A stretch of DNA of 64,000 nt, taken from IMG/VR virus record IMGVR_UViG_3300034068_000286, positions 1 to 64,000 of that record, one strand, 5' to 3'. Shown piece by piece: positions 1,584 through 50,528 of the stretch (position 1 is its first letter; each line of letters starts with the position of its first letter). Origin of the DNA: a virus. The position numbers and the translations under genes are program-made. The notes below the pieces were generated by a model. It was not told where the DNA came from and searched no databases. It saw only the letters and a list, made by a program, of their open reading frames with translations.

Positions 1584-2597
1584 TTAGTGACCATTCACTA
1601 ATTTTGCAAATTCACCACTGGCCAAGTTCTTGCCCTTGCTTTCACATTGGATATCAAAGTTATCGGCAAAGGTAGCGGCCCAAGAATTTACAGCGTGATT
1701 CCAGTAAAAGTCACTGTGTGCTCTAAGCTTTTGCTTTTTGTAGCCTAGCGATAAAAGGGAGGCCATGTCTGGGAGCTCGTCTCGGGCATGATCATTGAGT
1801 ACATCTTCGCGAGAAACACTATAATGCATAGCAGGACGGACACCGCGCCAACTGTCAATAACCCGTTTAACACGTACATCGTCAGGATGTATATATTCTC
1901 CCGAATTGATCCAGTGGTGATGGATGTCCAAAACGATTGGGCATAAGTCTGCAAGTTCGAGACAAGTTTCAAGATTGTGTGAGTTTTCTTCATTTTCAAT
2001 AGTTATGCAGTTACGAGCCTCTGGGCTTAGCCGATTATATGCCCGACGAATACCTTCGGGTCCTTGTTGTCCACTAATGTGTACATTGATCTTAAAGTCC
2101 TGGAATTTCTGTCCATAGCCCATCCAACGTGCTAGATCAGCGTGATACTCAAATTCCAAGATACTACGCTCTACAATGCCAGGATTTACTGAAGCTAGTA
2201 CGCAGAACTGTCCAGGATGGAAACTGAGTCTAACACCTAGTCTACGTGCGGCTTCGCCCACAGGAGCAAAGATCTTTGCACAATGATCTTGTACGTCCAG
2301 TTGCTTCCAAAACGGAATCCATTCTTCATGTGTGTAGCCCTGTAGCATTTCACTACCCAAGCGCACCATGCGTCTATGTTCAGGTAGTGCGGCCACACGT
2401 TCTACTAGCAATAGGGCCGCACGTGCATTGTGGTTCATAATATCCCACTGCCGTTGTTCAGCCTCGCTCTTGTGTTCACGCAACCAGCGCATGGTGGTAC
2501 TACGACCGTTTAAGTCTCGGTCCACAGCACTGACTTTCATACCAGCTACTTCACTTGGATCATTGATCCACTTGCAACAAAAACCTACTCGGCCCAT
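1584..2597 (-). CDS. uvsE: UV damage endonuclease UvsE/UVDE
   Basis: GFCC, RLSFHPGQFCVL, INVH, ITIENEE, LDIHHH and AHSD motifs; start moved to MGRVG with AGGAG SD. Confidence 0.92.
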   Translation of the reverse strand: MGRVGFCCKWINDPSEVAGMKVSAVDRDLNGRSTTMRWLREHKSEAEQRQWDIMNHNARAALLLVERVAALPEHRRMVRLGSEMLQGYTHEEWIPFWKQLDVQDHCAKIFAPVGEAARRLGVRLSFHPGQFCVLASVNPGIVERSILEFEYHADLARWMGYGQKFQDFKINVHISGQQGPEGIRRAYNRLSPEARNCITIENEENSHNLETCLELADLCPIVLDIHHHWINSGEYIHPDDVRVKRVIDSWRGVRPAMHYSVSREDVLNDHARDELPDMASLLSLGYKKQKLRAHSDFYWNHAVNSWAATFADNFDIQCESKGKNLASGEFAKLVNGH

Positions 2598-2619
2598 ACA
2601 TTCTCCTGATGTGTATGCT

Positions 2620-2648
2620 ATTATAAATGAAAACAGCGGTTGTGTCAA
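2620..2648 (-). promoter_or_regulatory. sigma70 promoter for uvsE
   Basis: TTGACA-17 bp-TATAAT. Confidence 0.8.
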
Positions 2649-2661
2649 CCGCTGTATATAG

Positions 2662-2878
2662 TGCCACGAAGCAAGGGAAACGAAAACAGTCAAATATCAG
2701 CAATCAAACATCTGGTATCAAACATACGCTTTTTGCTCAGATATATCATCAAATATCATTTTAATAGTTTTATATCTGAGCAAAGCTAGTTGAGTTAGTT
2801 TTTCAAGACTAATTCAGGATTTGTTTATCGCATGAAGCGATACTGTATTTTCGCTTTTACCTTGGACCAAGTGTGGCA
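2662..2878 (-). ncRNA. Putative multi-branched structured RNA downstream of the coiled-coil gene
   Basis: Terminal TGCCAC/GTGGCA pairing; long closing stem 2672-2690 with 2842-2864; three internal hairpins; four ATRTTTGA repeats. Confidence 0.55.
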
Positions 2879-2881
2879 GTC

Positions 2882-3460
2882 TTAGTCTAGCCCAAGTTCA
2901 GTTAGCACAAGTGCTACCTGTTCGGGTACTTCAATATCTGTGCGGACGTTGATACTGACCATTTCGTCCTTAATCTTGCGTCGACGTCGTCGAATTGCTT
3001 CCAGTTCTTTTTTGGCTTCTGCAATGGCCTCTGCTGGCACAACGTTGACGTCCAAGCTGTAGTCACGACCGTAAATGCTTACCCGTTCGTTGTTGCTATT
3101 GGCCTTGCGGCTTTCAATTTCTGCTGCCAAGGCATCCAAGTTGGGACGAACAGCAGATTCGCTGTAGGCTTTTAACCTAGACTCAGCACTGGCCAACATG
3201 GCTTCTTCAGCCAGGTAATCAGTGATGCCTACTTCGGCATTTTTCTTGGCTACCACACCACGTAGGAACTTGTTTGCGTTAAGCAAACGACCAGCCTGAG
3301 CATGATTTGCTTTTACCTTGGCCAGCTGTTCTTCTAACTGGGCATGTACATTTGTTTCAAACAAGCTGATTTTTGCTGTTGTTTCTTCTGTGCCCAAACG
3401 CTTGATTTCATCAGTGATTGTTTGCTGGACCACACTGGCCTTGCGTAAATTGATTTTCAT
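2882..3460 (-). CDS. Hypothetical coiled-coil protein
   Basis: 192-aa helical ORF with AGGA SD and its own sigma70 promoter. Confidence 0.75.
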   Translation of the reverse strand: MKINLRKASVVQQTITDEIKRLGTEETTAKISLFETNVHAQLEEQLAKVKANHAQAGRLLNANKFLRGVVAKKNAEVGITDYLAEEAMLASAESRLKAYSESAVRPNLDALAAEIESRKANSNNERVSIYGRDYSLDVNVVPAEAIAEAKKELEAIRRRRRKIKDEMVSINVRTDIEVPEQVALVLTELGLD

Positions 3461-3491
3461 GGAGTTCCTTAGAGTTTAATGTCTATGTGCT

Positions 3492-3520
3492 AGTATAGCA
3501 AAAGACACGGTCATTGTCAA
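3492..3520 (-). promoter_or_regulatory. sigma70 promoter
   Basis: TTGACA-17 bp-TATACT. Confidence 0.75.
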
Positions 3521-3536
3521 GACTTATTTGTCCAGA

Positions 3537-4352
3537 TTATGCAGGTGGAGGAATTAGTGCAAGCAAAGCGGCAATATCGTATTCATCTGCCAGTGCTATC
3601 CATCCGCCATCGGTATACACTTTAATTTTGCCAGGTGGTCCAGAGCTTATTGGATTCTTTTCAACTGTATTAAAGTACATGGTACCAACTTCACTTGTTG
3701 TTGGATCAGTTGCATAACACGGAAGTTTTGGTAAGCCTGTTACCACTTCTTTTGTTTCGTGTAGATGAACAAGAATATTACCATTCAATGGTACGGAGTC
3801 GCGGTCGTCAAAATTTCTAATTGGATCTATGTATAGACCTTTTTTTGCCGCTGTGATTTCAGAGTCACTTGTACTAATAACAATACTAGATCCCACTTGC
3901 CCATTGGCACCAGCTCGGTTTCCAATTGCGATAGAGTTCGCACCTTGTGCAGTTTGACCTGCCGTTTCACCAATGGCAATAGCACCAGCACCTTGTGCAG
4001 TTTGACCTGCATTTTCACCAATGGCAATGGCCAGCGTGGATTGCGTACTTTTCCCTGCACTGGTACCAACAGCAATGGCTTTTGCACCCTGTGATGTTCT
4101 ACCAGCTTGGTCACCAATGGCAATGGCAAATGTAGACTGTGCAGATTGCCCAGCTGATACTCCAATACAAATAGCATTAAGTGCTTGTGTTTCTTCTCCA
4201 GCACGGTCGCCAATGGCAATGGCCCATTGTGCCTGCGCTGAATAGCCAGCCTTGCGCCCTACAGATACTGTATTCTCAGTATTGCTTTCTTCTCCAGCGT
4301 ATCGTCCGATTGTTACGGAGTCTAGGTTATGTCTACGTCTTCTTCTGTACAT
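3537..4352 (-). CDS. YadA-head-like repeat protein (trimeric adhesin / fibre)
   Basis: About ten 14-aa repeats of AIAIG-x-x-AG-x-x-x-Q-x. Confidence 0.8.
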   Translation of the reverse strand: MYRRRRRHNLDSVTIGRYAGEESNTENTVSVGRKAGYSAQAQWAIAIGDRAGEETQALNAICIGVSAGQSAQSTFAIAIGDQAGRTSQGAKAIAVGTSAGKSTQSTLAIAIGENAGQTAQGAGAIAIGETAGQTAQGANSIAIGNRAGANGQVGSSIVISTSDSEITAAKKGLYIDPIRNFDDRDSVPLNGNILVHLHETKEVVTGLPKLPCYATDPTTSEVGTMYFNTVEKNPISSGPPGKIKVYTDGGWIALADEYDIAALLALIPPPA

Positions 4353-4360
4353 AATGATAT

Positions 4361-4819
4361 TTATTCCCCATCTGCTAAAACTTTTGGCTTTTTTGGTAAA
4401 GTAAATTTACCATAGCTTTTTAAGATTGGCATACCGGTTGGGTCGTTGGCTCTTATTTCCCCATCTAGCTCTATTGTATCACCTACACTGCGTGGAACAA
4501 CTTTGCAGAATAACCAGCGTTTGATCCTAGCAGGATGTACAAACTTATTATCCAGTTGCATTGTATATGCGGCACCACCCCCGGTTAGATCCCAGATGGC
4601 GGCACTCATGCAGTAGTCCATGTAGGTCATTAGTGCGCCACCATGCGTTACACCTTGGCTGTTACGGTGGTGTATATTGTTGATCCAGGCAAAGTTGCTC
4701 TCACTATGATCTGGTGTGAACTTGTACCACGTGGCCATGGTCCTACTTACAAAGTCATCCCACTTTTCACTGCGGCGAGTATAGCCTAGTAGCTCTAGTG
4801 CGGCAGGGGAATATTTCAT
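4361..4819 (-). CDS. PaaI-family hotdog thioesterase
   Basis: HRNSQGVTHGGALMTYMD motif. Confidence 0.85.
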   Translation of the reverse strand: MKYSPAALELLGYTRRSEKWDDFVSRTMATWYKFTPDHSESNFAWINNIHHRNSQGVTHGGALMTYMDYCMSAAIWDLTGGGAAYTMQLDNKFVHPARIKRWLFCKVVPRSVGDTIELDGEIRANDPTGMPILKSYGKFTLPKKPKVLADGE

Positions 4820-5199
4820 TAGCCTTTGAGTATGTTACGGAAATAACTAAGTGCGGCTTCATGCACCTGTTGTTCAGTTGCGTCATCAGGAACATCCAAT
4901 ATCAAATCCTCTGTACTGGCTTCCAGTTCCCATTCAAGTCCTGCGGGGATAACTTGATCAATTTCATAACTTAGAATATCACCAGCCGCAGAACCTAGTT
5001 CACTGTGCTCAATGTTGGTACTGAGTTGGAACACATAGCACCACATCTCGTCGTCATTCATGTGCTCCAGTACATCATCAGATACAACAATTTCACCAAT
5101 TTCATCGTCAATGATTTCTGTAAGGTCTGTAAACTCTTGATCTGTAAGTTCACGTTCAACGCAAATTCTTACAAAGAATTTTGGTTCTAATTCTTCCAT
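4819..5199 (-). CDS. Hypothetical acidic protein
   Basis: ORF with TAATG coupling to the next gene and TAAATA upstream. Confidence 0.65.
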   Translation of the reverse strand: MEELEPKFFVRICVERELTDQEFTDLTEIIDDEIGEIVVSDDVLEHMNDDEMWCYVFQLSTNIEHSELGSAAGDILSYEIDQVIPAGLEWELEASTEDLILDVPDDATEQQVHEAALSYFRNILKG

Positions 5200-5253
5200 G
5201 ATATATCCTTTTTCTAGTGTTATTTACAATCTACGATTGGATTCAATTGCTCG

Positions 5254-6123
5254 TTATTTAAAATCAAAACCCATTTGCTTCAAGCTTTGTGTCACATACT
5301 TTTTATCATATGCCACAGCCATTCTTTCTATCAGCCGATCAACATAGTCTTTCTTGTACAGAGCAGGAGAGCCATTAAAAGTTTTATGTACTGTATTGTA
5401 TGGGTCTAATCTGTCCATGTCATCAAACGTCTTGTAAGAACCATGATGTAGCACAATATCTGTAGGGAGTCTTGGTTTAGGACGTTTAACCGCCTGCACA
5501 AATGCATTTGGGTAACCTACAGCCATTCCAAAGATGGGAAAGGTGAGAGGAGGTAAATTAAAGTTCTCAATGAAATGTTCTGCAGGAATTTGTCTCACAG
5601 CACCGCAATACATTACACCAAGTCCTTGACTTTCTGCGGCCAGTGCAAATGTTTGTGCGGCAATGGTAGCATCAATAATGGCCTTTAGGTGAAACTCTGC
5701 TCTTGATGTTTGTAGCAGTAAATCAGCATCAATGTTTCTTTCTGTGGCATGTGCTTGTAAAATACTATCTACTCGATGCAGGTCTGCTAACCATATTAAG
5801 AAAACTGCACAATCATTTAATGCAATAACATTATAAGAATCAACACTACCCATTATATTTTGTGAGTATGGTGTATTGATTAATCGTGCCTTGCTTTCTT
5901 TGTCAGCGAGTGCAATGACACTCCAGGTCTGTAGCATGCCGCTTGTTGGCGCACTTTGAGCGGCTGCTACTAGTAGTTCAAGTTGACCAGGTGCTAAGGG
6001 TTGGTCTGTAAATCCCCTGATAGTACTTCTGCCTAGTACCTGTTGTATAAAATCATTGGGAGGATATTTGCTATCTTCTACTGAACCACCAAAACGTTTT
6101 TGATAAGCCGACTTCTCGCTCAT
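5254..6123 (-). CDS. NfsA/Frp-family nitroreductase (flavin reductase)
   Basis: RSTIRGF, AAQSAPTS...QTWSVI, DATIAAQ, AESQGLG...CG, GMAVGYP, KPRLP. Confidence 0.9.
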   Translation of the reverse strand: MSEKSAYQKRFGGSVEDSKYPPNDFIQQVLGRSTIRGFTDQPLAPGQLELLVAAAQSAPTSGMLQTWSVIALADKESKARLINTPYSQNIMGSVDSYNVIALNDCAVFLIWLADLHRVDSILQAHATERNIDADLLLQTSRAEFHLKAIIDATIAAQTFALAAESQGLGVMYCGAVRQIPAEHFIENFNLPPLTFPIFGMAVGYPNAFVQAVKRPKPRLPTDIVLHHGSYKTFDDMDRLDPYNTVHKTFNGSPALYKKDYVDRLIERMAVAYDKKYVTQSLKQMGFDFK

Positions 6124-6146
6124 AAAATACTAGCCTTTGCTATTGT

Positions 6147-7139
6147 TTAAAAGGCACCACCATCGAGTTCAGCTATATCAATTGCTGTAGTAATTTCAGT
6201 ACTAATCTCTGTTCTTGCTGTGACAATGGCCGCACTGATTGCATCTTCTACATAATCTAGTGTTGCAAAGCCCTGCCCTGCAACAACGTCAGTAATTTGA
6301 TTGTCAACATAACCCTTCGTTGCCGCATGGCTATCACTTGTAGGGTCAGCTGGTAGTGTAAGTGTACCAGTTGTATTGAGTGTAACTTCAAAGCTACCAT
6401 TGGCCAATCTGTTGGTGGGCTGTGCTGAAATTATATCAAGTACACGCTGTTCTGTAAAGTACAGGTTGGTACCCTCGGCCAAATCAGAAGTTGTTTTAGT
6501 AGCCAATGCCGCATCAAAGCGAGCCTGTGTCCAATACAAGTTATCACCTTCGGCTAATGCAGTTGTTGTCTTGGCAGCAAATGCCGAATCAAATCTGGCT
6601 TGTGTGTAGTATAAATTGCTACCTTCAGTTGTGTCCGATGTTGACTTAGAACCCAATGCCGCATCAAAGCGAGCCTGTGTCCAATATAAGTTACTGCCTT
6701 CAGCTACATCTGAAGTTGTTTTGGCGGCCAATGCTGAGTCAAATCTAGCTTGTGTATAATACAGGTTAGTGTCTTCGGCTACATCTGAAGTTGTCTTGCT
6801 AGTTAGTGCGGTATCGAAGTAAGAGTTAAAATCGTTTGATGCTAATTTAGTACCAATCAGTGCTGTAATAGTTGTGGCAAAGTTTTCGTCATTGTCTAAT
6901 GCCGCTGCCAATTCGTTCAATGTATCCAACAGCGCAGGAGCACCATCAACCACTGCATCAACATAGGCCTTGCTGGCCAAGTTGCCAATTGCCACAATTG
7001 ATTCAGTTAGATTCTGTCCAGTAATTTTTTGTGTGATGCGGTCATTTACTAATACAAATTCATCAAGGCTATCAAATTGAACTGTCTCATCTAGTTCTGA
7101 TATTTTGGCAAACATTTTGCCCTGGAAAAAATTACTCAT
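6147..7139 (-). CDS. Virion fibre/structural protein with 25-aa repeats
   Basis: Five KTTSDxAEGxNLY(Y/W)TQARFDxAL repeats; LDTLNELAAAL and HAATKGYVD tail-fibre motifs. Confidence 0.8.
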   Translation of the reverse strand: MSNFFQGKMFAKISELDETVQFDSLDEFVLVNDRITQKITGQNLTESIVAIGNLASKAYVDAVVDGAPALLDTLNELAAALDNDENFATTITALIGTKLASNDFNSYFDTALTSKTTSDVAEDTNLYYTQARFDSALAAKTTSDVAEGSNLYWTQARFDAALGSKSTSDTTEGSNLYYTQARFDSAFAAKTTTALAEGDNLYWTQARFDAALATKTTSDLAEGTNLYFTEQRVLDIISAQPTNRLANGSFEVTLNTTGTLTLPADPTSDSHAATKGYVDNQITDVVAGQGFATLDYVEDAISAAIVTARTEISTEITTAIDIAELDGGAF

Positions 7140-7151
7140 TGCGGCCTCTCA

Positions 7152-7550
7152 TTATACTGACACACGAGTCAGTATTACATATATTGTATAGTTTGATTGA
7201 TTTGCACCATCTGGTAAACACTCAATCTTTAATGTTGAACTTGCTGATGTTAGCACAACGTTTGCACTAAAGTCTTCTTGGAATACATCTTCAATTCTGG
7301 TTATTGTTGTGCCTGTAATTGTGCCACGCAAGTGCCTTGCTACAATACCTGTTGTACTAGAAGCAAGAACTTTAATGTCATAAAACTCAACACCACTTAG
7401 ATCAATGTCTGTGCCATCTCTAGTCACAGCAAATTGGTTTGCTCCTGACGTAGATGCAGTCAAAGTAAAATGACGAACTTCAGCGCCAGAACCTTCACCT
7501 AAAGTAAATTGGTTAGAAGTAGTTCCTGCTGTGTTATTATATGTTTTCAT
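7152..7550 (-). CDS. Putative structural protein
   Basis: Thr/Ser-rich beta-type ORF inside the fibre operon. Confidence 0.6.
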   Translation of the reverse strand: MKTYNNTAGTTSNQFTLGEGSGAEVRHFTLTASTSGANQFAVTRDGTDIDLSGVEFYDIKVLASSTTGIVARHLRGTITGTTITRIEDVFQEDFSANVVLTSASSTLKIECLPDGANQSNYTIYVILTRVSV

Positions 7551-9535
7551 TATATGTAAGATACCTCAACTCTGATGTTGCCTGTTGCTGTATTGCTTGG
7601 AATATTCACAACAACATCTTCTCTTACTGATGTAATTAGATCAGTATCTACTGTGTATGTACCTACCTTGCTAGAACCGTGTTGGCTAAACTGCCAAACA
7701 GTATTGGCACCAACTTCAATTGTAAAGTCTGGAGCATTGACCAAGTCTTGCAGTACAGTAACGCTAACATTTAAAATTCTACGATCTTCGCTTACTGTAC
7801 CAATTGTGGTTGTTGCGCCAGGCAATGCTACCACTTCTTTGATTGTTCTGGCATCTACCGCTACACTTCGTTCACCGCCAACCTTGGTCCATTGACTACC
7901 ACTGTAGACGAAAGTGGCCCATTCACCATTGCCATCATCAATGACATAGCACTGATCTCCAACTAATGCATTTAATGCATCACGAGCTAGCATATTTGCA
8001 ACAACAGTAATGCCACTTGATCTGATACCTTGCTCAATGTTTAGGCCCAGAGCATAGCGTCCATTCTGTCCACTCATCACTCCAGCCGTGTCTAAGAATT
8101 GACCAGAAAAATCTCTTATAGTTAATGGGCCACCATCCAAGCGCATTAAACGTAGCGCACTTGTTGTAGTGTTTGCGGCTGTGGCCAAAGGTAAACTTGA
8201 TAACGAGCTTGCACCAGCAAAGTTATTGCTGTTGGCATCTGCTGTGACATTCACAATAGTAATTGCACCACCAGCATTGTGTCTTAGTTTAATGTCCGTA
8301 CCATTGACCAGGCTAGCAACAACGTCTGGGATTTTGGCCGCATTAATATCTGCTACCATGTCGTTTTGATCAGCAACAACAGGATCACCATATGCCGCAC
8401 TACCACTGGTGGTTGTTGTAAAGTTAACAGTTACTCCGTTGATGCTTGCACTAAAGGGAGTATATCCAGCAATAATACCATACGCACTACCTTGTCCTGC
8501 AATGTCGCTAAACACTTCAGTGGCCGCACCAACTTTAACTGCGGTAACGTTATGATTAGGAGTCTCAGCATTGATTAATGCAACTGCTTCTTCTACGCCA
8601 TATGTACCATTACCGCTGCCTAATGTAATCTGTACTCTATTAATTTCAACCACATCACCATCTGTGCCAGTTGGATCTATACCTGTACCTGTAGTAGATG
8701 TTGTAACCGCATCTGCAATCTTCATGTAAATTGGTCTACGACTTGCATCACTGGCAGTTAAGTCGCCGCTGCCATCTAAACTAGGATACAAGTAATCACC
8801 AACATTACCAGGCAATCCTGGTACAAAGTCAATGATACCATTGGCAGGGCGTAAAATAAATTGATCAGGGCCTGGACCCGGATGTACCACTGTACCAATA
8901 AAGCGATCAATGTTATCAGGATCGCTGAGTGTAAATTCTTCGTCTTCAATACAAATAGAATCGCCTTGTTCAAAGCCATGTGCTGGCTTTTCCAACAAGT
9001 AATTTGTAAGTGGATTCATATACTGGAACCTACTCATTACGTTGGTAAAGAAGTCTGCGCCTGCTTCACCTGGCAATGGGTCTAGCATCGGGAAGCCTAG
9101 TTCATTGATTTGGAAAAAGATAACATCTCCATTGGAACTGAACAAGCCCAGACCCATTGGATCTCGGAATGTATTATAGCGTAGTCTATCTTCTACAATT
9201 GCTACAACTTCTGAATTTGTCTTAGATGAGATGCTTAATATTTGTAAAACTTTTCCATCTAAGGCGCCGCCAACAAAATCACCTACTTCAATATCTTGTG
9301 CATTAAATCTAAAAGGTGTACGTGTTAAGTTACTACCGTGTGTTCTTTCAGTAATACTGAATGAAACTTCCCACTTATAGTATTGCGGATTAGAACTTCC
9401 GCTCCAATAAGGATCGTCGGCACTATTGGGATACGGCCAAAGACTCACAGGAGTTACTGAAGTAACACTACCTGATAGAACTTTTGCCGGTTTGTTTAAA
9501 CCAATAAAGCTGGTTTTCCAAGCATTAATAGTCAT
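7550..9535 (-). CDS. Large putative virion structural protein (661 aa)
   Basis: Gly/Thr/Asp-rich beta-type ORF coupled to the fibre genes. Confidence 0.7.
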   Translation of the reverse strand: MTINAWKTSFIGLNKPAKVLSGSVTSVTPVSLWPYPNSADDPYWSGSSNPQYYKWEVSFSITERTHGSNLTRTPFRFNAQDIEVGDFVGGALDGKVLQILSISSKTNSEVVAIVEDRLRYNTFRDPMGLGLFSSNGDVIFFQINELGFPMLDPLPGEAGADFFTNVMSRFQYMNPLTNYLLEKPAHGFEQGDSICIEDEEFTLSDPDNIDRFIGTVVHPGPGPDQFILRPANGIIDFVPGLPGNVGDYLYPSLDGSGDLTASDASRRPIYMKIADAVTTSTTGTGIDPTGTDGDVVEINRVQITLGSGNGTYGVEEAVALINAETPNHNVTAVKVGAATEVFSDIAGQGSAYGIIAGYTPFSASINGVTVNFTTTTSGSAAYGDPVVADQNDMVADINAAKIPDVVASLVNGTDIKLRHNAGGAITIVNVTADANSNNFAGASSLSSLPLATAANTTTSALRLMRLDGGPLTIRDFSGQFLDTAGVMSGQNGRYALGLNIEQGIRSSGITVVANMLARDALNALVGDQCYVIDDGNGEWATFVYSGSQWTKVGGERSVAVDARTIKEVVALPGATTTIGTVSEDRRILNVSVTVLQDLVNAPDFTIEVGANTVWQFSQHGSSKVGTYTVDTDLITSVREDVVVNIPSNTATGNIRVEVSYI

Positions 9536-42497: not shown

Positions 42498-42701
42498 TTA
42501 AACAGTTGACACTTGTGGATGGAATTCAATACGGAAACCTAACCTAGTAGGATAGAGTTCGTATTGTAGTTCTCGGACTTCACGCTTCATTTCAGCTGAG
42601 TCACGATGTTGCCAAACAGAGGTACTAAAAAGTCTTTCGCCAGTTTTAGTACGCCTGTCTGTTTTGTAGATGTACATGGTATGAATCTGTTTCATAATCA
42701 T
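42498..42701 (-). CDS. Hypothetical early protein
   Basis: IYKTDRRTKTGERL motif. Confidence 0.65.
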   Translation of the reverse strand: MIMKQIHTMYIYKTDRRTKTGERLFSTSVWQHRDSAEMKREVRELQYELYPTRLGFRIEFHPQVSTV

Positions 42702-42705
42702 CTCC

Positions 42706-43032
42706 TTATAGTGTATTTAGAGTGGGCTTCAATAATGCAGTCAGTTCACGCTCACGAGCATGAGCCGCTGTCTTGCCACGCACCACTTCCAACAAGTAAG
42801 GAGTGAAACCTTCACGTCCATATGTACGAAGTGCTTCGCACAGGTTCCAGTTCTTGCTTTCTGTATTGGCACGGCTCAAATGACGGTTAAAACGTCCACG
42901 CACAGAGCTCAATGCAGAGCCATCAACTACAGTGATACCAATGTAGCTGTCACCTGTAACTTCGCAAAACAATTCGTAAATTGCGTGGTTACGGTCTGTA
43001 CGTCTTTTGCGGGATACTGTTTTGCTGTTCAT
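42706..43032 (-). CDS. GIY-YIG nuclease-domain protein
   Basis: AIYE...DSYIGIT...R...H...ERE...PTLN. Confidence 0.75.
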   Translation of the reverse strand: MNSKTVSRKRRTDRNHAIYELFCEVTGDSYIGITVVDGSALSSVRGRFNRHLSRANTESKNWNLCEALRTYGREGFTPYLLEVVRGKTAAHARERELTALLKPTLNTL

Positions 43033-43038
43033 GTGTTT

Positions 43039-43126
43039 ATTATAACGCACTTTGAGCCAGACGTCAACCGTTTTCTGGGCTTTTGAGCCAGATTTCTGAG
43101 CCTATTTTTGTTGTATTTTAGCAACA
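43039..43126 (-). promoter_or_regulatory. Early sigma70 promoter plus upstream 18-bp palindrome
   Basis: TTGACG-17-TATAAT; TGTTGTATTTTAGCAACA at 43109-43126. Confidence 0.75.
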
Positions 43127-43153
43127 AACTAGATTATCGATAATATTATATGG

Positions 43154-43223
43154 AATTATTATCAATTATTATCAATTATTATCAATTATTATCAATTATT
43201 ATCAATTATTATCAATTATTATC
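43154..43223. repeat. Tandem repeat (AATTATTATC) x7
   Basis: Seven perfect 10-bp units; the last overlaps the amidinotransferase stop codon. Confidence 0.95.
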
Positions 43224-44280
43224 GATTATCGGGGAAATAATCTTCCATTGTACCTTCTCTGTGTAAATCAGTAGTGATACAATGTAATCCACCATCCCAG
43301 AAATAACGATGTCTAAAATTGCAAATATGTGGAGTAATATTATATCTACCGAATGCATCAAATACTGTTTTATTATATCCATTAACGATTACATTATGTT
43401 TGTCAATAACCAGCATATTAACATCAAACACACTTTCTTCAACATAACCTACCCAATGACTCATCCACTTCTCAACGTAGCTGGTAAAGTCATCATTTAG
43501 TTCTTGTCCAGGAACCCACCACTTGCCTTCATTTTTGTATTTCATTTGAAGGAACGGATCTACTTTATTCATCTCACCAGTTAGTGCAACTACCTCCCAG
43601 CCAGGAAATGTTTTCCCATATTGTAAAGGTTCTTGATTAGATATTATCAATCCTGGTACCACAGGACAAAATGTACCATCAGTGTGTCCCTGAGTATCTA
43701 TATTGTGAACACGATAATCGGGCAATTTGTCTTGTAATTCGTTTGATACTCTTGCCAGATCTTCAGCGGTGTTGTTGAATTCGAATCTACCCGGCGTCCC
43801 AACTATTAAGTCTCGACCAATACGACTAATCATTGCGGCATTTAAAAAATGCCATGTATCCAACTTAGGTTCACTTGAACCATAATCTGGCCCTCGTTCT
43901 GTAGTATTGCCCTGAGCTTGTACTAAATCTACTATGGGTTCATTGGTTGCAGGTACGCCTCGCCAGTAAAACTTATCGCCTAACATGGCACAGTAATCTC
44001 TAGGTTGCATTTCACTTGGTCGCGGAATAAATGTATTGGTTTCAATACCTCGTTGTGATTCTGCAATCCGTTCGGTCATGTCAGGTCTAACTGTTTGCAC
44101 ACCAAAACTATGTAATAGATTAATTAGTTTTTGATAGTCTTCTTCAGTTTCTTCTGCTATTTGATAAAATACCTTGCGAACCTTTTCGTTCTTGATATAA
44201 TCATAAAGTTCTGGGGGATACGATTTTCCCACTGCACAGACTTTGAGTCTGTCCCAATGTTGATAAACTGAATATGTCAT
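43219..44280 (-). CDS. Amidinotransferase (glycine/inosamine-phosphate amidinotransferase family)
   Basis: WDRLKVCAVG, QPRD, GHTDG, FDVNML and GGLHC pentein catalytic motifs. Confidence 0.85.
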   Translation of the reverse strand: MTYSVYQHWDRLKVCAVGKSYPPELYDYIKNEKVRKVFYQIAEETEEDYQKLINLLHSFGVQTVRPDMTERIAESQRGIETNTFIPRPSEMQPRDYCAMLGDKFYWRGVPATNEPIVDLVQAQGNTTERGPDYGSSEPKLDTWHFLNAAMISRIGRDLIVGTPGRFEFNNTAEDLARVSNELQDKLPDYRVHNIDTQGHTDGTFCPVVPGLIISNQEPLQYGKTFPGWEVVALTGEMNKVDPFLQMKYKNEGKWWVPGQELNDDFTSYVEKWMSHWVGYVEESVFDVNMLVIDKHNVIVNGYNKTVFDAFGRYNITPHICNFRHRYFWDGGLHCITTDLHREGTMEDYFPDNR

Positions 44281-44609
44281 AGTGCGTCTGGCCAATCTCT
44301 AAAAAGTGCATGTTGTATATTGCCGCTTACAAACTGATTGAAACTCTTGTGCTTGACTTCCAATTCACCTTCTAGCGGTGCTACTCGTTGGAATGCAGTA
44401 TCCATTTGAGCCATGCCTGTAAACTCCATCATGACGTGCCATTCGGGCATGTCTGCGATGCTACGAAATCCCATCTTACATCTAGTAATACGATATGATT
44501 CCATTTTCTTTTCTGCAACAAGATGATCTAAAAAAGACTTCATGTTGTTGACCCATTCAAGGTCTGGTATGTTTTCTGTTTTGTCACACCATATGTGGTA
44601 AATGTCCAT
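44277..44609 (-). CDS. DUF6614-like small alpha+beta barrel protein
   Basis: YHIW...YRITRCKMGF...EWHVMMEF..MAQMD.AF; family recalled, not searched. Confidence 0.5.
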   Translation of the reverse strand: MDIYHIWCDKTENIPDLEWVNNMKSFLDHLVAEKKMESYRITRCKMGFRSIADMPEWHVMMEFTGMAQMDTAFQRVAPLEGELEVKHKSFNQFVSGNIQHALFRDWPDAL

Positions 44610-45033
44610 TAAAAGGTCCTAATAGTTCAAAGCCCTGCATACTCAGCATGTAGGGTTCTACTGATTCAAAATACATAAATTCATAGCCTCGATCTCTGTA
44701 CAAGGCACATTCATTTTCTAAACTCCGTAAACCTATTCTTAACTTGGGATTACTATAGTCCCAGGCATGATGATCTATAACAATACTTTTGCTGTCCCAA
44801 ATACGATACATGCTCCAGGCTATCAATTTGTTTTGATCGTAATAACCAAGCACTTCAGTCCCTGGTATTGTGAATCGGCCAGGTACTAGTGGCATGACAC
44901 TTTTAAAGTTTTTATATAAACAATATGTTTCATATACCTGGTTTATTTCATCAATTGGTACAGGATTTAGCAAGTGTGCATCTAGTATAATATTGTATGT
45001 GGTTTTTGTTAAATCTAAGCGTCCAAATTTCAT
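44584..45033 (-). CDS. Aminoacyl-tRNA-protein transferase (ATE/Bpt C-domain)-like GNAT protein
   Basis: GYY...KLIAWS...WDY.NPKLRIG..SL..EC.LYR..GY.FMY...Y...GFE resembles ATE_C. Confidence 0.55.
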   Translation of the reverse strand: MKFGRLDLTKTTYNIILDAHLLNPVPIDEINQVYETYCLYKNFKSVMPLVPGRFTIPGTEVLGYYDQNKLIAWSMYRIWDSKSIVIDHHAWDYSNPKLRIGLRSLENECALYRDRGYEFMYFESVEPYMLSMQGFELLGPFNGHLPHMV

Positions 45034-45037
45034 GCGT

Positions 45038-45529
45038 CTATTTATATCGCCATGAAACTACTGAATCTAAATCTTCTTTAGTCCAAGAATTATAGTAACC
45101 TTTTTCACGTAGTTGGTCACTTGCGTTGTTTAGCTTATCTAGCTTCTGAATAATCAGCAACCCACAATGGCCAAAGTTCATACACACACCATTGATGTAT
45201 TCAGGTGTCCATGGATGATCTTCTAATATAACATAGTTTGCTGGAATTAACGTCTTGTTCATTCCTTCAACATATTCTTGAAGTTCAACTGGATTAATGT
45301 TATTGTGGTCAAAGCATACCACTACCACCTCTTTAGAAGCTAACAAGTCAACTGATTCATGTACCGCTTGTGTTAACTCTGCAATATCAGCAAATTTAAT
45401 ACTGATATTGTTGTTGACTCTGGCTTGTCTAGCATACGGACAAGGAGCCCAGTCACCTAACTTAGGATTTGGCGATTCAATAAACTCGGTCATCCATTTT
45501 GTTAGTTTTGCTATAATATCATTATGCAT
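45038..45529 (-). CDS. DUF1415-like protein
   Basis: W...F.E......PCPYA and DHP motifs. Confidence 0.5.
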   Translation of the reverse strand: MHNDIIAKLTKWMTEFIESPNPKLGDWAPCPYARQARVNNNISIKFADIAELTQAVHESVDLLASKEVVVVCFDHNNINPVELQEYVEGMNKTLIPANYVILEDHPWTPEYINGVCMNFGHCGLLIIQKLDKLNNASDQLREKGYYNSWTKEDLDSVVSWRYK

Positions 45530-47015
45530 TGTTTAAATGTTTACCTGTGATCAAATTATAATTATAACTGGCTCGTGCCATTGAGTTTTCTACAGACTTC
45601 TCATTGAGATTGGTCTGATTAAATGGCATATTTTCTACAATATATTCTGGTATGTCATGAAACCAAGCACTTGCAACTTCCCAGCCGCCAATTTTTATAT
45701 GATGTCTAGCAGACTCAATGCATTTGTTAGAAATTTCTTGTGCCTTATTTGCAGTCATTCCAGAGGTATGCACCCAATCCAATGACCGTGTGTTGTATGC
45801 TAATTCTTTAGTGGTATACCCATAAGATTTTGGGTCCTTTTCAAACAAGCTGTATGGAACTTCACCCTTTGCTGTTCGGTGCATTCCAAGTGCATTGAAA
45901 TTCCAACTTCTGAATAGACGATTCTTGTTTTCAATTAAGTAATCACTCCATTTATAAATTTCTTCTTCAGTGTCACCTGGTAGTCCAGCAATCAAACTGG
46001 CATGCATTTTAACACCATTCTCATTGAGAGTTTGTGCAATTTCAAGCACCCGGTCAACTGCGATGCCTTTTCCGACTATCTGTCTAGATTCTTTTCGCAT
46101 AGATTCAAGGCCAATAAATCCACCCTTAATACCCAAGTCAAGTAACATAGAAAGCATGTTGGGTTTGGTAATAATTAGTTCAGGCCTAATATAACCCACA
46201 AATTCAAAATTTGATAATTTAGCAATTTCAATTGCTCGTTTAACTATATCTAGTTTTTCGTAGCTGTCGTTAAATGTGTCATCAGATATCATGTATCGGT
46301 AGGTACCAAACAATTCATAATTTCTTTTAAGTTCGCGACCAATGCTTTCTGCTGTTCGTATATAATCGTATGACTTTTTACCCAGGAATGGATGTGTGCA
46401 AAATGCACATTTAAAAATACATCCCCTGCTTATTTCAATAGGTAAAGGTTGATGAGATAAGAATCCATCTTCTTCCTTAAAGACTGTTTCAATTTCGTCT
46501 ACATTTATTACTGGATAATCTCTGTCAGCTGATACTATTTTAATTTCGCCTGAATTGGGACCTGGAATACCGTGTGCATCTGTTATATAAATCAAATCTG
46601 ACGTTTTTCCGTAGAGATAATCAACAAGCTTGACAAATGCAATATCACTAAACCCACTAACAAACCAGTCGCAATAGTTATATAACAATGCCGGTGGGGT
46701 AGTACTAGTGCCTCCAACCACAATTGTTATATCTGGAAAGAGTCTCCTAAATCTTCTAAAAAAAGAAAGATCCTGTGCCCACTTATTGGTTGGGAAATGA
46801 TACCAGGCAGCACTGATACCTAATATTTTTGTTTCCGTTGTAACAAGTGTTGACAGCAGTTCAATCATTTGATCCTGATTAAGTGCCCATGCGTAGTCAA
46901 TGATTTTTAGCGAATATCCTGCATTTTCAAATGCTGTTCTTAATCTAAAAGAGCCAATTGCTCTACCTACTCGATCAAACGTGATACCACCAATCAGTAT
47001 TACGTTATAACCCAT
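45522..47015 (-). CDS. B12-binding radical SAM enzyme
   Basis: N-terminal cobalamin-type domain (ILGIS, IVVGG); EISRGCIFKCAFC; DDTFN; GLES; IAGLPGDT. Confidence 0.88.
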   Translation of the reverse strand: MGYNVILIGGITFDRVGRAIGSFRLRTAFENAGYSLKIIDYAWALNQDQMIELLSTLVTTETKILGISAAWYHFPTNKWAQDLSFFRRFRRLFPDITIVVGGTSTTPPALLYNYCDWFVSGFSDIAFVKLVDYLYGKTSDLIYITDAHGIPGPNSGEIKIVSADRDYPVINVDEIETVFKEEDGFLSHQPLPIEISRGCIFKCAFCTHPFLGKKSYDYIRTAESIGRELKRNYELFGTYRYMISDDTFNDSYEKLDIVKRAIEIAKLSNFEFVGYIRPELIITKPNMLSMLLDLGIKGGFIGLESMRKESRQIVGKGIAVDRVLEIAQTLNENGVKMHASLIAGLPGDTEEEIYKWSDYLIENKNRLFRSWNFNALGMHRTAKGEVPYSLFEKDPKSYGYTTKELAYNTRSLDWVHTSGMTANKAQEISNKCIESARHHIKIGGWEVASAWFHDIPEYIVENMPFNQTNLNEKSVENSMARASYNYNLITGKHLNNA

Positions 47016-47305
47016 TATCGTCCATAGCCGCGTCGATATGCTTCTGCTTCTCGCTTGCGTTGTTCTTCGTAGTGGCGCTGACGTGTACCACGTTCACATG
47101 CGGCTCTTTCGCTGTGCAGTTGATATTGAGTGCAGGTGCTGTTTACAATAATCACTTGCTCGTGTGTTACCACTCTGTGCTGTGGCTGTGCCATTGCATT
47201 GCCAATGATAAGTCCAGTGGTGCCTGCAAGTACTGCTGTACCTGTTCTACTTGCACAACCTGTTAGAGCCAAGGTCGCTACGATTGCAATTAAAAGTTTT
47301 TTCAT
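47015..47305 (-). CDS. Small lipoprotein with glycine-zipper-like segment
   Basis: LALTG-C lipobox; AGTTGLIIG; TAAATA at 47323-47328. Confidence 0.75.
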   Translation of the reverse strand: MKKLLIAIVATLALTGCASRTGTAVLAGTTGLIIGNAMAQPQHRVVTHEQVIIVNSTCTQYQLHSERAACERGTRQRHYEEQRKREAEAYRRGYGR

Positions 47306-47325
47306 TATAAACTCCTTTGAAATAT

Positions 47326-47718
47326 TTATCGACGCATTGTTGAAATTGCTATGGCTTCTTCATCGCTGAAAATAGGAACAGCATTTGACTTGTGCATAGT
47401 GCCAATACCTTTAACCTTGGTACCTGTGTACTGCGGTGATGCTCGGTATGTTCCGGCACCAGTTTCGCCTGTGTTACGAGATGGGATATGTGCAGACGTT
47501 CTACCTGCTGGTGCGCCAAGATTATACACCAACGGCTCAGCACTCATTGCTCGCCGGCGTTTACGTTCTTCTTGCTCTACGCCCTGACGCTTTAGTAAGT
47601 CATTCCAAGATTCTTCCAATTCTTCTGCCTTTCGTTTAGCTTCAGATGAGGCAAATTTCTTTTTGCCTCGCATCTTGCCTGTTGTACTAAGCCACGGACC
47701 TTCCATATGCATCGACAT
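47326..47718 (-). CDS. Conserved T4-like phage hypothetical protein
   Basis: YTGTKVKGIGTMHKSNAVP...MRR motif; TTGACA-17-TATAAT upstream. Confidence 0.75.
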   Translation of the reverse strand: MSMHMEGPWLSTTGKMRGKKKFASSEAKRKAEELEESWNDLLKRQGVEQEERKRRRAMSAEPLVYNLGAPAGRTSAHIPSRNTGETGAGTYRASPQYTGTKVKGIGTMHKSNAVPIFSDEEAIAISTMRR

Positions 47719-47818
47719 ATTAGCCTTTCAAAGTTGCTTGCTCATTGTGTTATTATAGCGTATAATTAAGTACTTGTCAAATTTCTTGATAAGTATAGTT
47801 TTATCCTGAACCACTTTT

Positions 47819-48376
47819 ATGATCCACGATTCACAATATCCAGCTTTACTACTAAATGCTGACTTTCAACCGGTCCACATGCATCCTTTGAGTACTATCT
47901 CTTGGCAGGATGCAATTAAGTCTGTCTTTACGGACCGTGTAAATGTTGTAGCTGAATACGATATAGAGGTCCATAGTGCTACACGAAGCTGGAGACTACC
48001 CAGTGTAGTGGCCCTAAAAGACTATGTCAAGCGAGACCAAACTCCTACATTCAGTCGTTACAATGTTTATCTTAGAGACCAGTTCACTTGTCAATATTGT
48101 GGTGGCGAATTTGAAGCCAAGCACTTGACATTTGATCACGTTATCCCAAGAGCACATGGTGGTATCAGTTCGTGGCAAAATGTTGTTGCGGCATGTAGCC
48201 CTTGTAATCATCGCAAAGGGGCGAAGTTACCGCAGGAGGCTAAAATGTTTCCGTTAACAAAACCCGTGCCACCTAGTGCATGGGATTTGTATGCACGTGG
48301 TAAACGCAGGCCTCAAAGCAATCTCCATGAAACGTGGAGAGATTATTTGTACTGGGATATTGAGTTAGATGCTTAG
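47819..48376 (+). CDS. HNH endonuclease
   Basis: RDQFTCQYCG...TFDHVIPRAHGG...WQNVVAACSPCNHRK. Confidence 0.92.
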   Translation: MIHDSQYPALLLNADFQPVHMHPLSTISWQDAIKSVFTDRVNVVAEYDIEVHSATRSWRLPSVVALKDYVKRDQTPTFSRYNVYLRDQFTCQYCGGEFEAKHLTFDHVIPRAHGGISSWQNVVAACSPCNHRKGAKLPQEAKMFPLTKPVPPSAWDLYARGKRRPQSNLHETWRDYLYWDIELDA

Positions 48377-48969
48377 TACTCGCCAGGAGCATCAACAAGG
48401 CCAATTGGGTTAATTCCTAGTTGCCTTGATTCTTGCCATTTGCTTTCGGGCATGATGTCCAAGATCAAGTGAGTTCTAAACTCTGTGCCTCTGTTGGTTG
48501 CACTATGAGTCACACGATTGTTTAGCTCATACAGATAGCCCATTTCCATGTGATACTCTTCAGTTTTCCAAAGTTGTACACACTGGTCGTTGGTATAAAT
48601 TGGCACATGCAAACGCACACAATTGTCATGGAACCACTGCGGATCTTTATGCCAACCTAGTGTTACTCCTGGAAGTAGCGTAGCAACTTCACCACGAATC
48701 CATTTGTATCCTGCAAATCTAGGCAAGGTCAAGATCCAGTCTAACAGTGGCTTACTTGCTCTTAGTATCTCTGTTTGTTCTGGTGTGTAGTTTTTATTGG
48801 GCTTGCTGATAGGGAACGGATATTCTACTAACTTACCATCAGATAGGACTTTTTCAAACCGGTCATATGTTCCATTGCCCCAGTTTGCTTTTTTGCAGGC
48901 TTCAATGATTGGGTCTACTAGGCCAGCATCAATAGTTTCTACCACACGATAATTTAATTCAAATAGCAT
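48373..48969 (-). CDS. AspH-like 2OG-Fe(II) oxygenase
   Basis: WHKD...RLHVPI...ELNN...HSATN...RTHLILD. Confidence 0.82.
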   Translation of the reverse strand: MLFELNYRVVETIDAGLVDPIIEACKKANWGNGTYDRFEKVLSDGKLVEYPFPISKPNKNYTPEQTEILRASKPLLDWILTLPRFAGYKWIRGEVATLLPGVTLGWHKDPQWFHDNCVRLHVPIYTNDQCVQLWKTEEYHMEMGYLYELNNRVTHSATNRGTEFRTHLILDIMPESKWQESRQLGINPIGLVDAPGEY

Positions 48970-48970
48970 A

Positions 48971-49678
48971 TTACCAATCCAGTATAGTTGGGATAGTTCT
49001 TTTATTGCGAGGGAGATATTCTCTCACTGGCCAAGTCTTAGCATACGGCTGAACTGCACTTTTTAAAATGTCAATCAACATGATTATTCTAGGCTCTGTT
49101 CCTGTATGCTTTGTGCCATGGAATACATTACAATCATCAAAACCAAACAACTCACCATCTACCCATTCGTGCCGTTCGTTTTCAATGTCAAATACACAAC
49201 CTGTTGCTTGCTTTAGCACCAAGTGAAAACGAATATATTCATTTACCAATCCCCAGTGGTGATTCAGTTTACTTCCTGGCAATGAAATATTAAAAGTGAC
49301 TGCGCCAAGTACTTCAATATTTTTATACATCCACTGTTGTATAAATGGCATATGGTGTATCCTTGCATCATTGAATGATATTTTGGCACCACCTGGTTGC
49401 TTCCAATTCTTCCAGTCCATTGACTTTGCTTCATGATGGTCAACAAAATCTTCTCTAAGCATTATTGGCATGGCTTTAAAGTCACCAACGTATAATTCTT
49501 CGCCTGTTAGGTCAGTGATATAATTTGCCTTGATGCCTTTTACTTCTGTTATTTTTTGCTTTACCCAATAAGTCTCTCTTACACATTGTTTGACAAACTC
49601 GTCACGAATTGTGGTCCAATTGTTGGTCAATGGATCTAGTAATTTACAAGGATTAAAATATATGTAGTTACTTTCCAT
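48971..49678 (-). CDS. AspH/LpxO-like 2OG-Fe(II) oxygenase
   Basis: PGSKLNHHWG...RFHL.L...FDD...HGT.H...PRIIMLID. Confidence 0.8.
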   Translation of the reverse strand: MESNYIYFNPCKLLDPLTNNWTTIRDEFVKQCVRETYWVKQKITEVKGIKANYITDLTGEELYVGDFKAMPIMLREDFVDHHEAKSMDWKNWKQPGGAKISFNDARIHHMPFIQQWMYKNIEVLGAVTFNISLPGSKLNHHWGLVNEYIRFHLVLKQATGCVFDIENERHEWVDGELFGFDDCNVFHGTKHTGTEPRIIMLIDILKSAVQPYAKTWPVREYLPRNKRTIPTILDW

Positions 49679-50528
49679 ACAGGGTTTCTTTTAAGCTTTC
49701 ATCATGTTCAATGTTACAACGCCACATTAGTCGTTCGTCTTCGGCTTTCAAATCCAAGAATGTACGACTATGTACAAATGGCCAGTTGTCATACAGCACC
49801 ATGTCATTGGGGCTCCAAGTATGCGTGTACACACACTCTGGTACAGCCGTCATTGCTTCCATAAGTTCTTCTACAATGCCAGTGCCCATGCTTTTACCGT
49901 TCATCTTGGTGTCAATGATCCAAGAGTCTGTTGTCCCGTGAAAGTTACATCTAGGGCTCCAACGTCCGGTAATTGGTTGCTGTTTCATTGAAGGCCACTC
50001 AATAATATCTTTGCCTAAGTGATGCCAATTTTGTTGAATAATAGTACGCTTCTCCCATCGTGCCCTAAGTTTAGGATGCACTTCAGGATAAGCTTTTTCC
50101 ATATCTAACCAAACAGTTAAACCTGCTCTAGGATTAGGAACAGTTTTCATATAGATGATACGATGCGGAAATTGAATGCCGCCGTCAACACGATTGGCAA
50201 TATCAGCATGCCATGGCATTTCTTTATCACCAAGTCGTACGCTAATTTTGTTACTAATTGCTGTAATGAATTTTGGTTCTGTTGGGTTATCCGGATCGCT
50301 GACTACCTCCCATTTTTCCGTACTGTCGTGATAGTTTTTATTTGTCCAAGGTTGACCCCATAGCGCACAGAATTTCCAATAGGTTAACTTGTCCCATTCA
50401 GGGGCATGAAGTACTATCATCTTTCGATCGTAAAGTAGCTTACGTAGTTCACGTGTATCTTGATCAAAAATATCACTCATATCTGTAACTTCGGTGCCCC
50501 AATCAGAGAAAATGTTTTTTGTTTGCAT
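49668..50528 (-). CDS. TauD/TfdA-family dioxygenase
   Basis: WHAD...HTWSPNDMVLYDN...HSR...R.MWR; TAAATA at 50534-50539. Confidence 0.85.
   Translation of the reverse strand: MQTKNIFSDWGTEVTDMSDIFDQDTRELRKLLYDRKMIVLHAPEWDKLTYWKFCALWGQPWTNKNYHDSTEKWEVVSDPDNPTEPKFITAISNKISVRLGDKEMPWHADIANRVDGGIQFPHRIIYMKTVPNPRAGLTVWLDMEKAYPEVHPKLRARWEKRTIIQQNWHHLGKDIIEWPSMKQQPITGRWSPRCNFHGTTDSWIIDTKMNGKSMGTGIVEELMEAMTAVPECVYTHTWSPNDMVLYDNWPFVHSRTFLDLKAEDERLMWRCNIEHDESLKETLYGK

Follow-up and report, generated by a model that had tools for sequence, protein, structure and literature searches.

The described systems that come closest to the genes discussed here include two from bacterial biosynthesis. In the formation of argolaphos by Streptomyces monomycini, AglC requires tRNA and ArgRS to produce the arginyl amide AMPn-Arg (PMC8976061, PMC12866846). 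The guanidine group of AMPn-Arg is N-hydroxylated by AglA, which works with ferredoxin-type partners and is the prototype of the YqcI/YcgG enzymes, a four-stranded-sheet "sandwich" with a haem ligated by Cys44 (PMC12866846). In the phevamine A system hsvABC of Pseudomonas syringae and Erwinia amylovora, HsvA amidinates spermidine with L-arginine and amino acids are then ligated through amide bonds (PMC6187163). We analysed a stretch of viral DNA, the first 64 kb (referred to below as the window) of the 86.5-kb IMG/VR virus record IMGVR_UViG_3300034068_000286, in which six consecutive minus-strand genes fall into two units. Module A encodes a lipoprotein and a radical S-adenosylmethionine (SAM) protein of 497 amino acids, rSAM497; module B is a cassette encoding the proteins p163 and p149, a DUF6614 protein and a predicted amidinotransferase. 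Module B is a mobile four-gene cassette of many uncultured aquatic T4-like and giant phages, and our literature searches found no description of it.

The cassette would share with the AglC–AglA pair the combination of a GNAT-type, aminoacyl-tRNA-dependent amidoligase and a small Cys-ligated haem enzyme acting on an arginine-derived compound; haem binding by the phage protein is predicted, and AglA is the only structure that stands out among the matches of p163. The two systems differ in that p163 falls short of AglA by about 80 residues and lacks a PF08892 match, and in that p149, which consists of ATE_C only, can be likened to AglC at the GNAT level but not placed in the AglC subfamily. The phage cassette also comes without phosphonate genes, no dedicated reductase is encoded nearby, and it has an amidinotransferase and a DUF6614 protein in addition. 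The resemblance to hsvABC lies in HsvA, an amidinotransferase which matches the profile of the phage clade at E 1e-17, whereas ligation in that system is carried out by two ATP-grasp enzymes and not by a tRNA-dependent GNAT enzyme. There is neither an oxygenase nor a DUF6614 protein in hsvABC, which is a bacterial virulence operon and not a phage cassette. With the aminoacyl-tRNA-protein transferases ATE1 and Bpt, p149 has ATE_C homology in common, including the conserved core motif, but it lacks ATE_N, is about 145 amino acids long as against about 235 (Bpt) or 500 (ATE1), and has a gene context that points to small-molecule chemistry rather than N-degron tagging. Among phages, CP220 and CPt10 of Campylobacter carry uncharacterised clusters of five radical SAM genes and a putative glycine amidinotransferase gene (PMC2853527). 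As phage-borne clusters of radical SAM and amidinotransferase genes they are similar to our loci L070 and L078-L080, a likeness drawn from their description only, but a tblastn search of cultured phages with the amidinotransferase of the window matched nothing beyond Synechococcus phage S-SCSM2R and marine single-cell virus records.

Two separable units in one row of genes

CheckV rates the 86.5-kb record as 26% complete, which makes the source a giant phage with a genome of some 300 kb or more. DNA nearly identical to it is present in lake-water metagenomes of many studies, and none of the sequencing runs listed for it is of RNA. Against cultured phages at the DNA level, the region gave nothing with megablast and one short marine match with blastn. 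The initial annotation had described a late operon of six genes resembling a single biosynthetic or modification cluster, and a list of the window's open reading frames (ORFs) bears out its gene order and tight junctions. In the direction of transcription, the row consists of the genes for the lipoprotein (47015-47305, 96 amino acids), rSAM497 (45522-47015), p163 (45038-45529, 163 amino acids), p149 (44584-45033, 149 amino acids), the DUF6614 protein (44277-44609, 110 amino acids) and the amidinotransferase (43219-44295, 358 amino acids from a TTG start). An alternative start of the last gene, an ATG at 44280, gives a protein of 353 amino acids and makes an ATGA with the stop codon of the DUF6614 gene. 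The lipoprotein and rSAM genes are translationally coupled through a 1-nt overlap, also in an ATGA; the following junctions are an 8-nt overlap (rSAM/p163), a 4-nt gap (p163/p149), a 26-nt overlap (p149/DUF6614) and a 19-nt overlap (DUF6614/amidinotransferase).

Does this row hold together in other viruses? We compared 19 proteins of the window with 70 viral loci by tblastn. In five of them (L001-L005), where rSAM497 is 92% (L001-L003) or 77% (L004-L005) identical, the 2-oxoglutarate (2OG) oxygenase genes, the HNH gene, a gene for a 130-residue protein, the lipoprotein and rSAM genes and the GIY-YIG gene are all kept without any of the four cassette genes, and the GIY-YIG gene comes directly after the lipoprotein and rSAM genes. 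The rSAM gene occurs without the cassette in L001-L008, and a lipoprotein gene lies directly upstream of it only in the close lineage L001-L005. In L001 (9495-9545), as well as in L002 and L003, a remnant of about 42 nt from the 3' end of the amidinotransferase gene stands straight after the rSAM stop codon; in L001, 38 of 42 nucleotides are identical. This remnant shows that the whole cassette, about 2.3 kb, was cleanly deleted there, and hence that the rSAM gene and the cassette were already neighbours in the ancestor shared with L001. Contigs of four lake metagenomes that cover positions 42500-48000 contain the cassette and connect it to the rSAM gene, and no contig skips it.

The cassette is also found in quite different surroundings. 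Loci L052-L056 have p163, p149, DUF6614 and amidinotransferase genes in the same order and with overlapping junctions, following a gene for dCMP deaminase and preceding a penicillin-binding-protein-like gene. In L076 the cassette lies between nrdA/nrdB and a glutaredoxin-like gene (2500-9472), with an additional gene for a protein of 227 residues, which has no family match, between p149 and DUF6614; variants of the cassette are carried by L072 and L070. No rSAM497 homologue is encoded near the cassette in L052-L056, L072 or L076. The 352-kb record behind L055 (G126), rated 100% complete, has the cassette and no rSAM497 homologue in its genome, and an amidinotransferase is missing from five records, up to 74% complete, that encode rSAM497 homologues. 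Since module A is kept without the cassette and the cassette occurs elsewhere without rSAM497, the six genes represent two units. The proposal of one linked cluster thus holds for the four cassette genes, which stay linked across relatives at 27-90% identity, and fails for the rSAM and lipoprotein genes. Even at 27-37% identity, amidinotransferase and p163 co-occur in L075, L077 and L079. Clustering of the ORFs that lie up to 6 kb from the amidinotransferase in 30 loci placed DUF6614 near it in 17, p163 in 11, p149 in 10 and a radical SAM protein with an N-terminal twitch (NF033640) in 11, counts which are not independent because many of these loci come from related phages.

Proteins of the cassette and of module A

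Most of the domain assignments in the initial annotation hold in our family, profile and structure comparisons. The amidinotransferase is matched by no Pfam family at E up to 0.1, which reflects a weakness of the models, the clade being too divergent for them, and is no evidence against the fold. With this protein as the query, phmmer returned solved amidinotransferases only, and a profile of nine phage homologues matched, among solved structures, SxtG (1.9e-20), AGAT (5e-19), HsvA (at the value given above) and StrB1 (8e-12) and no other family. Asp100 of a PRD motif, His204 and Asp206 of an H.D motif and Cys339 of an HC motif are invariant in all nine phage proteins, and HMMER alignments place them opposite the catalytic PRD, H.D and HC motifs of AGAT. 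The proposed assignment is well supported by these matches: the protein appears to be an L-arginine-type amidinotransferase which keeps the Asp/His/Cys catalytic residues and is predicted to carry out amidino transfer. Across 185,579 species genomes, close relatives were found only on short, viral-looking contigs of metagenome-assembled genomes, identity in bona fide bacterial genomes being 28% at most, and the clade seems to be largely restricted to phages. A marine lineage (L059 3900-10355; also L057, L058, L060, L061, L063 and L064) has two tandem amidinotransferase paralogues together with a DUF6614 protein that bears a C-terminal extension. In this lineage a gene for a QueE-like radical SAM protein flanks them on one side, and genes for GMP reductase, a phosphoribosyltransferase, a Vut_1-family (PF02592) transporter and a cupin flank them on the other.

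For p149, which had been annotated as an ATE/Bpt-like tRNA-dependent transferase, the evidence comes from distant homologues. The protein itself has no direct Pfam match. An exhaustive phmmer search among 1.84 billion representative proteins found 96 relatives, and six of the longer ones (183-262 amino acids) exceed the gathering threshold of ATE_C (PF04377); some of the longer relatives also match the FemAB-like GNAT model PF13480. A profile of 35 sequences of the family matches the yeast and human ATE1 structures 7wg1, 7tif and 8e3s at 1e-6 to 2e-6, and the pattern FxWDY..P.L.LG...E....K..GY.Y.YLG....YK is common to p149 and ATE1. ATE_N is absent, as the 149 residues begin at the region equivalent to ATE_C, and only relatives of 225-262 amino acids have an N-terminal extension. 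By these comparisons p149 is a true ATE_C homologue, a putative GNAT-type amidoligase which corresponds to the C-terminal half of arginyl/leucyl-tRNA-protein transferases, and the earlier assignment stands for this half only.

The second small protein, p163, has a weak match to DUF6875 (22 bits, below the cut-off of 24.5). Its neighbours in the ESM atlas, which is based on a protein language model, are DUF6875/DUF1415 clusters, so that the label "DUF1415-like" proposed for it is a fair one. Pfam transitivity links DUF6875 weakly to DUF1415 and not to PF08892. Within the p163 family, Cys30-Pro31 and His105-Pro106 are invariant. An AlphaFold2 model of p163 (predicted local distance difference test, pLDDT, 94) shows a four-stranded sheet flanked by helices, an alpha/beta sandwich. 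A full VIA-align scan with this model gave AglA (9ub3_A) as the best match, with 146 of 163 residues aligned at a root-mean-square deviation of 3.9 and the next match at Z 4.3; the Z of 7.8 for AglA is within the range reported for models without a true relative, for which 7-8 is typical. Foldseek with the model against PDB and the family profile against PDB sequences gave nothing significant. In both the p163 and YqcI/YcgG families a strand is followed by His-Pro. A remote relationship of p163 to the YqcI/YcgG enzymes is reasonable but unproven, and we see the chances for and against it as about equal. Judged from its modelled fold, p163 is a candidate minimal thiolate-haem oxygenase, with haem binding presumed. 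Proteins of this family, 26-32% identical, are annotated as "hypothetical proteins" in cultured marine phages, namely Synechococcus phage Sf-CH11 and S-PM2, Syn1, S-RIM44, S-RIM32 and HMO-2011. In Sf-CH11 (L176 3532-4429) the gene for the p163 homologue overlaps a prolyl-4-hydroxylase-type 2OG dioxygenase gene just upstream of the baseplate wedge genes, and no amidinotransferase is present.

The DUF6614 protein was correctly recognised as a barrel of this family. It matches PF20319 at 8.5e-24, with a score of 84.2 bits (83.5 bits when the genome was searched) where the cut-off is 25, and its model (pLDDT 78; beta-alpha-beta-beta-alpha-beta) has the dimeric alpha+beta-barrel, ferredoxin-like fold. 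Foldseek found 28 matches at E <=1e-3 for it, among them YgiN, 4-methylmuconolactone methylisomerase and olivetolic acid cyclase at 2e-4 to 1e-3. Conservation in the family is unusually strong: of its 981 protein clusters, the top 120 are all at least 76% identical, and in loci whose amidinotransferase is 57-66% identical the DUF6614 protein is 82-91% identical. In 50,697 cultured phage records, tblastn found no match for DUF6614 or for p149, and a tblastn search of cultured phages with rSAM497 gave none. The label "DUF6614" has been used in a preprint for the anti-Druantia protein Druad1, a lead that we set aside: Druad1 has 44 amino acids and cannot cover the 110-residue domain, and its authors found no homologues.

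In module A, the call of a lipoprotein is confirmed by a signal peptide with an LTGC lipobox and a match to LPAM_1 (23.9 bits, cut-off 20). rSAM497, which had been annotated as a B12 radical SAM protein, has the radical SAM core (PF04055, 2e-19, 70.7 bits against a cut-off of 29.5) and the CX3CX2C motif, while its B12-binding domain (PF02310) scores 21.7 bits, below the cut-off of 32.1. The nearest NCBIfam families are PhpK, BzaD, HpnJ and the ladderane B12 radical SAM proteins, all far below their cut-offs, PDB entry 9ccb matches at 1.9e-5, and PADLOC gave only a generic radical SAM match in the window. Module A is thus best described as a lineage-specific pair of a lipoprotein and a putative radical SAM protein of the cobalamin-binding (class B) type. 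At L070 and L078-L080 the amidinotransferase lies within clusters of several radical SAM genes, including those of twitch proteins, and in L078 a B12 radical SAM protein 26% identical to rSAM497 is encoded about 5 kb from the amidinotransferase. A loose functional tie of phage amidinotransferases to radical SAM chemistry is possible, with rSAM497 not being obligatory.

A proposed arginine-derived compound and its alternatives

What is observed directly is the gene content of the cassette, the homologies of its proteins, the conserved catalytic residues, the linkage of the genes and their mobility independent of module A. The enzyme families favour a small molecule as the target, and three of the four plausibly point to arginine/guanidine chemistry. 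Our preferred reading, in which we place somewhat better than even confidence, is that two adjacent units are co-transcribed and that the most likely role of module B is to make or tailor a small guanidino compound derived from arginine. The precedents of AglC/AglA and HsvA lead us to propose three reactions for the cassette: amidination of an amine, aminoacylation of an amine and oxidation of a guanidine. The amidinotransferase would move the amidino group of L-arginine to an amine acceptor with release of ornithine. The ATE_C-only GNAT enzyme p149 would form an amide bond to an amine from an aminoacyl-tRNA (arginyl-tRNA by analogy). If p163 is a haem-thiolate enzyme, as its fold suggests, it would N-hydroxylate or otherwise oxidise the guanidine with electron carriers of the host, and the DUF6614 barrel protein might perform a cofactor-free tailoring step or bind the product. 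The substrates, the acceptor, the order of these steps, haem binding and the product are what we infer. The guanidino/aminoacyl tailoring cluster seen in the initial annotation fits the linked p163, ATE_C-like, DUF6614 and amidinotransferase genes and does not extend to the unlinked rSAM and lipoprotein genes; pathway models should leave out the adjacent B12-type radical SAM protein and the lipoprotein.

Several points weigh against this proposal, beyond the shared ancestry of many loci behind the co-occurrence counts and the modest Z of the AglA match. Neither p163 nor any of 21 relatives matches PF08892. In hhalign, p163 and 15 actinomycete YqcI/YcgG proteins gave a probability of 3.4%, the sole aligned segment at this value pairing the PCPYA of p163 (Cys30) with the invariant FPC cysteine of YqcI/YcgG proteins. 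Being about 80 residues shorter, p163 would lack the substrate-gating loop of AglA. Because the p163 homologues of cultured cyanophages adjoin 2OG dioxygenases without an amidinotransferase, the family has other contexts as well. As ATE_N is missing, the tRNA dependence of p149 is an assumption. Finally, DUF6614 is so highly conserved that it could also be a protein partner or target and not an enzyme.

Could all six genes, including those for the B12-type radical SAM protein and the lipoprotein, nevertheless serve a single pathway? The tight gene coupling in the source genome and the scar in L001, which puts the rSAM gene beside the cassette in the common ancestor, would agree with this, as would the amidinotransferases in the multi-radical-SAM clusters of L070 and L078-L080, with the rSAM497 relative of L078, and the clusters of five radical SAM genes and a putative amidinotransferase gene in phages CP220 and CPt10 (PMC2853527). 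Yet the rSAM and lipoprotein genes outlast the loss of the cassette, the lipoprotein gene stands beside rSAM in the closest lineage only, and in L052-L056, L072 and L076 the cassette has no rSAM497 homologue near it. With a complete 352-kb cassette genome devoid of such a homologue, and five records that have the homologue without the amidinotransferase, we regard a single pathway as highly improbable. A lack of any joint function, the genes being unrelated accessories in a hypervariable island bordered by homing-endonuclease genes, would accord with the flanking GIY-YIG and HNH genes, with the gain and loss of the cassette and with the occurrence of each gene family in other combinations. It is hard to reconcile with an order and overlapping start and stop codons that persist in four or more different genomic contexts at 36-90% identity, or with the plausible convergence of three of the four families on arginine/guanidine chemistry, and we consider it quite improbable.

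The target is a further question. The cassette might modify proteins: the ATE_C-like enzyme would transfer an amino acid from tRNA to the N-termini or side chains of proteins, either as an N-degron tag for a phage ClpS/ClpA or as a modification of virion proteins, with the amidinotransferase and the oxygenase acting on protein-bound Lys, Orn or Arg. This reading draws on the homology of p149 to the protein-modifying ATE1 and Bpt, on the detection of the amidinotransferase of cyanophage S-SCSM2R (31% identical) in purified virions (PMC12801897) and on the conservation of DUF6614, which could mark a protein substrate or adaptor. We think it fairly unlikely, given that p149 lacks ATE_N, that every solved relative of the amidinotransferase has small amines as its substrates and that the solved structures matching the DUF6614 model are largely small-molecule enzymes; moreover, AglC/AglA, the known pair of an ATE_C/GNAT and a YqcI-type protein, acts on a small molecule, and the cassette moves as a unit independent of any Clp gene seen. 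Perhaps nucleotides, DNA or DNA-associated polyamines are the target, for example an aminated base or 7-deazapurine intermediate that is amidinated as a protection against restriction. No homologue of TGT/DpdA was found in the 86.5-kb record (26% complete), and the QueD-like and QueC-like genes of the window, which hint at such chemistry, are weak matches, far below their family cut-offs, as is the QueE-like match of the marine lineage. That lineage (L057-L066), with its tandem amidinotransferases and DUF6614 amid GMP reductase, phosphoribosyltransferase, Vut_1-family transporter and QueE-like radical SAM genes, would suit such a target, but it is a single one. The preprint label "DUF6614" on an anti-Druantia protein would point the same way were Druad1, which is without homologues according to its authors, not too short for the domain. 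Altogether we give a nucleotide or DNA target little chance.

A more far-reaching form of the proposal that module B makes or tailors a small molecule, possible but on balance doubtful, is that aquatic giant phages make a new arginine-derived small molecule during infection, maybe an aminoacylated amidino-amine with an N-hydroxyguanidine, which would serve in host takeover, anti-defence or competition. The enzymes building it would be a minimal tRNA-dependent ligase of the ATE type, a phage-specific amidinotransferase and a miniature thiolate-haem oxygenase. If true, this would add a new class to the secondary metabolites encoded by viruses, in a field where phage-encoded small-molecule biosynthesis is seldom documented, and p163 would represent a new minimal haem-enzyme family. 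The components of the cassette are common in uncultured aquatic phages, each with 226 to 981 protein clusters (at 90% identity). The cassette is small (2.3 kb, four genes) and expressible as a unit, so that its product can be tested directly, as can what an ATE domain does in the absence of ATE_N and what would be the first function assigned to DUF6614 and to DUF1415/DUF6875.

Expression signals, boundaries and neighbouring genes

The operon had been called late on account of a TAAATA box. This box is present on the minus strand at 47323-47328 within GATAAATA (47323-47330), which agrees with the T4 late consensus at 7 of 8 positions; it shares bases with the stop codon of the preceding gene, that for the 130-residue protein, and lies 17 nt before the ATG of the lipoprotein gene, which is preceded by an AAGGAG ribosome-binding site (47312-47317, minus strand). 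TAAATA occurs 5-45 nt upstream of 10 of the 81 minus-strand ORFs as against about 1 expected, an enrichment of about 10-fold, and is therefore probably a real signal. As a late promoter the box is plausible, by analogy with T4, but not established. There is also a perfect sigma-70-type promoter (TTGACA-17-TATAAT, 12 of 12 matches) on the minus strand at 47752-47780, upstream of the gene for the 130-residue protein (47326-47718, phrog_27048) and 450 nt upstream of the TAAATA box and the operon. No terminator is predicted between this promoter and the lipoprotein gene, so that read-through into the six genes is possible and the label "late" is an uncertain one. The full T4 late consensus, TATAAATA, has its sole exact match in the window at 45039-45046 on the minus strand (1 as against 4.8 expected), where it shares bases with the stop codon of p163, 5 nt ahead of the ATG of p149. 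This may be an internal promoter of the late type, or it may be nothing other than the codons for ...Tyr-Lys-stop.

Downstream of the amidinotransferase gene there is no terminator. A 10-bp tandem repeat with the unit AATTATTATC (plus strand; 43154-43229, 7.6 copies, 98% matches) begins in the stop region of this gene and marks the downstream boundary of the cassette, which varies between strains. Contigs of lake metagenomes break at the repeat or continue with at least three different downstream sequences, and for this reason it may be a recombination hot spot. The six genes are bracketed by a GIY-YIG gene (42706-43050, minus strand) and an HNH endonuclease gene (47819-48376, plus strand), both 80-100% identical in L001-L005, and free-standing homing endonucleases may promote the exchange of the DNA between them. 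A scan of the window detected no tRNA gene.

Next to the HNH gene, three 2OG-Fe(II) oxygenase genes stand in a row on the minus strand (48373-50528), two of them Asp/Asn-hydroxylase-like and one TauD/PtlD-like; they are kept with rSAM in L001-L005. About 20 kb away in the source genome, at 68.7-79.8 kb (L175 4769-15826), there are genes for four radical SAM proteins with an N-terminal twitch, another radical SAM protein, a B12 radical SAM protein and a NodU-like carbamoyltransferase. Larger arrays of the N-twitch proteins (NF033640) are found in the complete 352-kb phage behind L055, at 56-76 kb (16 matches, 12 of them above the cut-off), and in the 139-kb record behind L061, at 40-63 kb (10 matches, eight above the cut-off).

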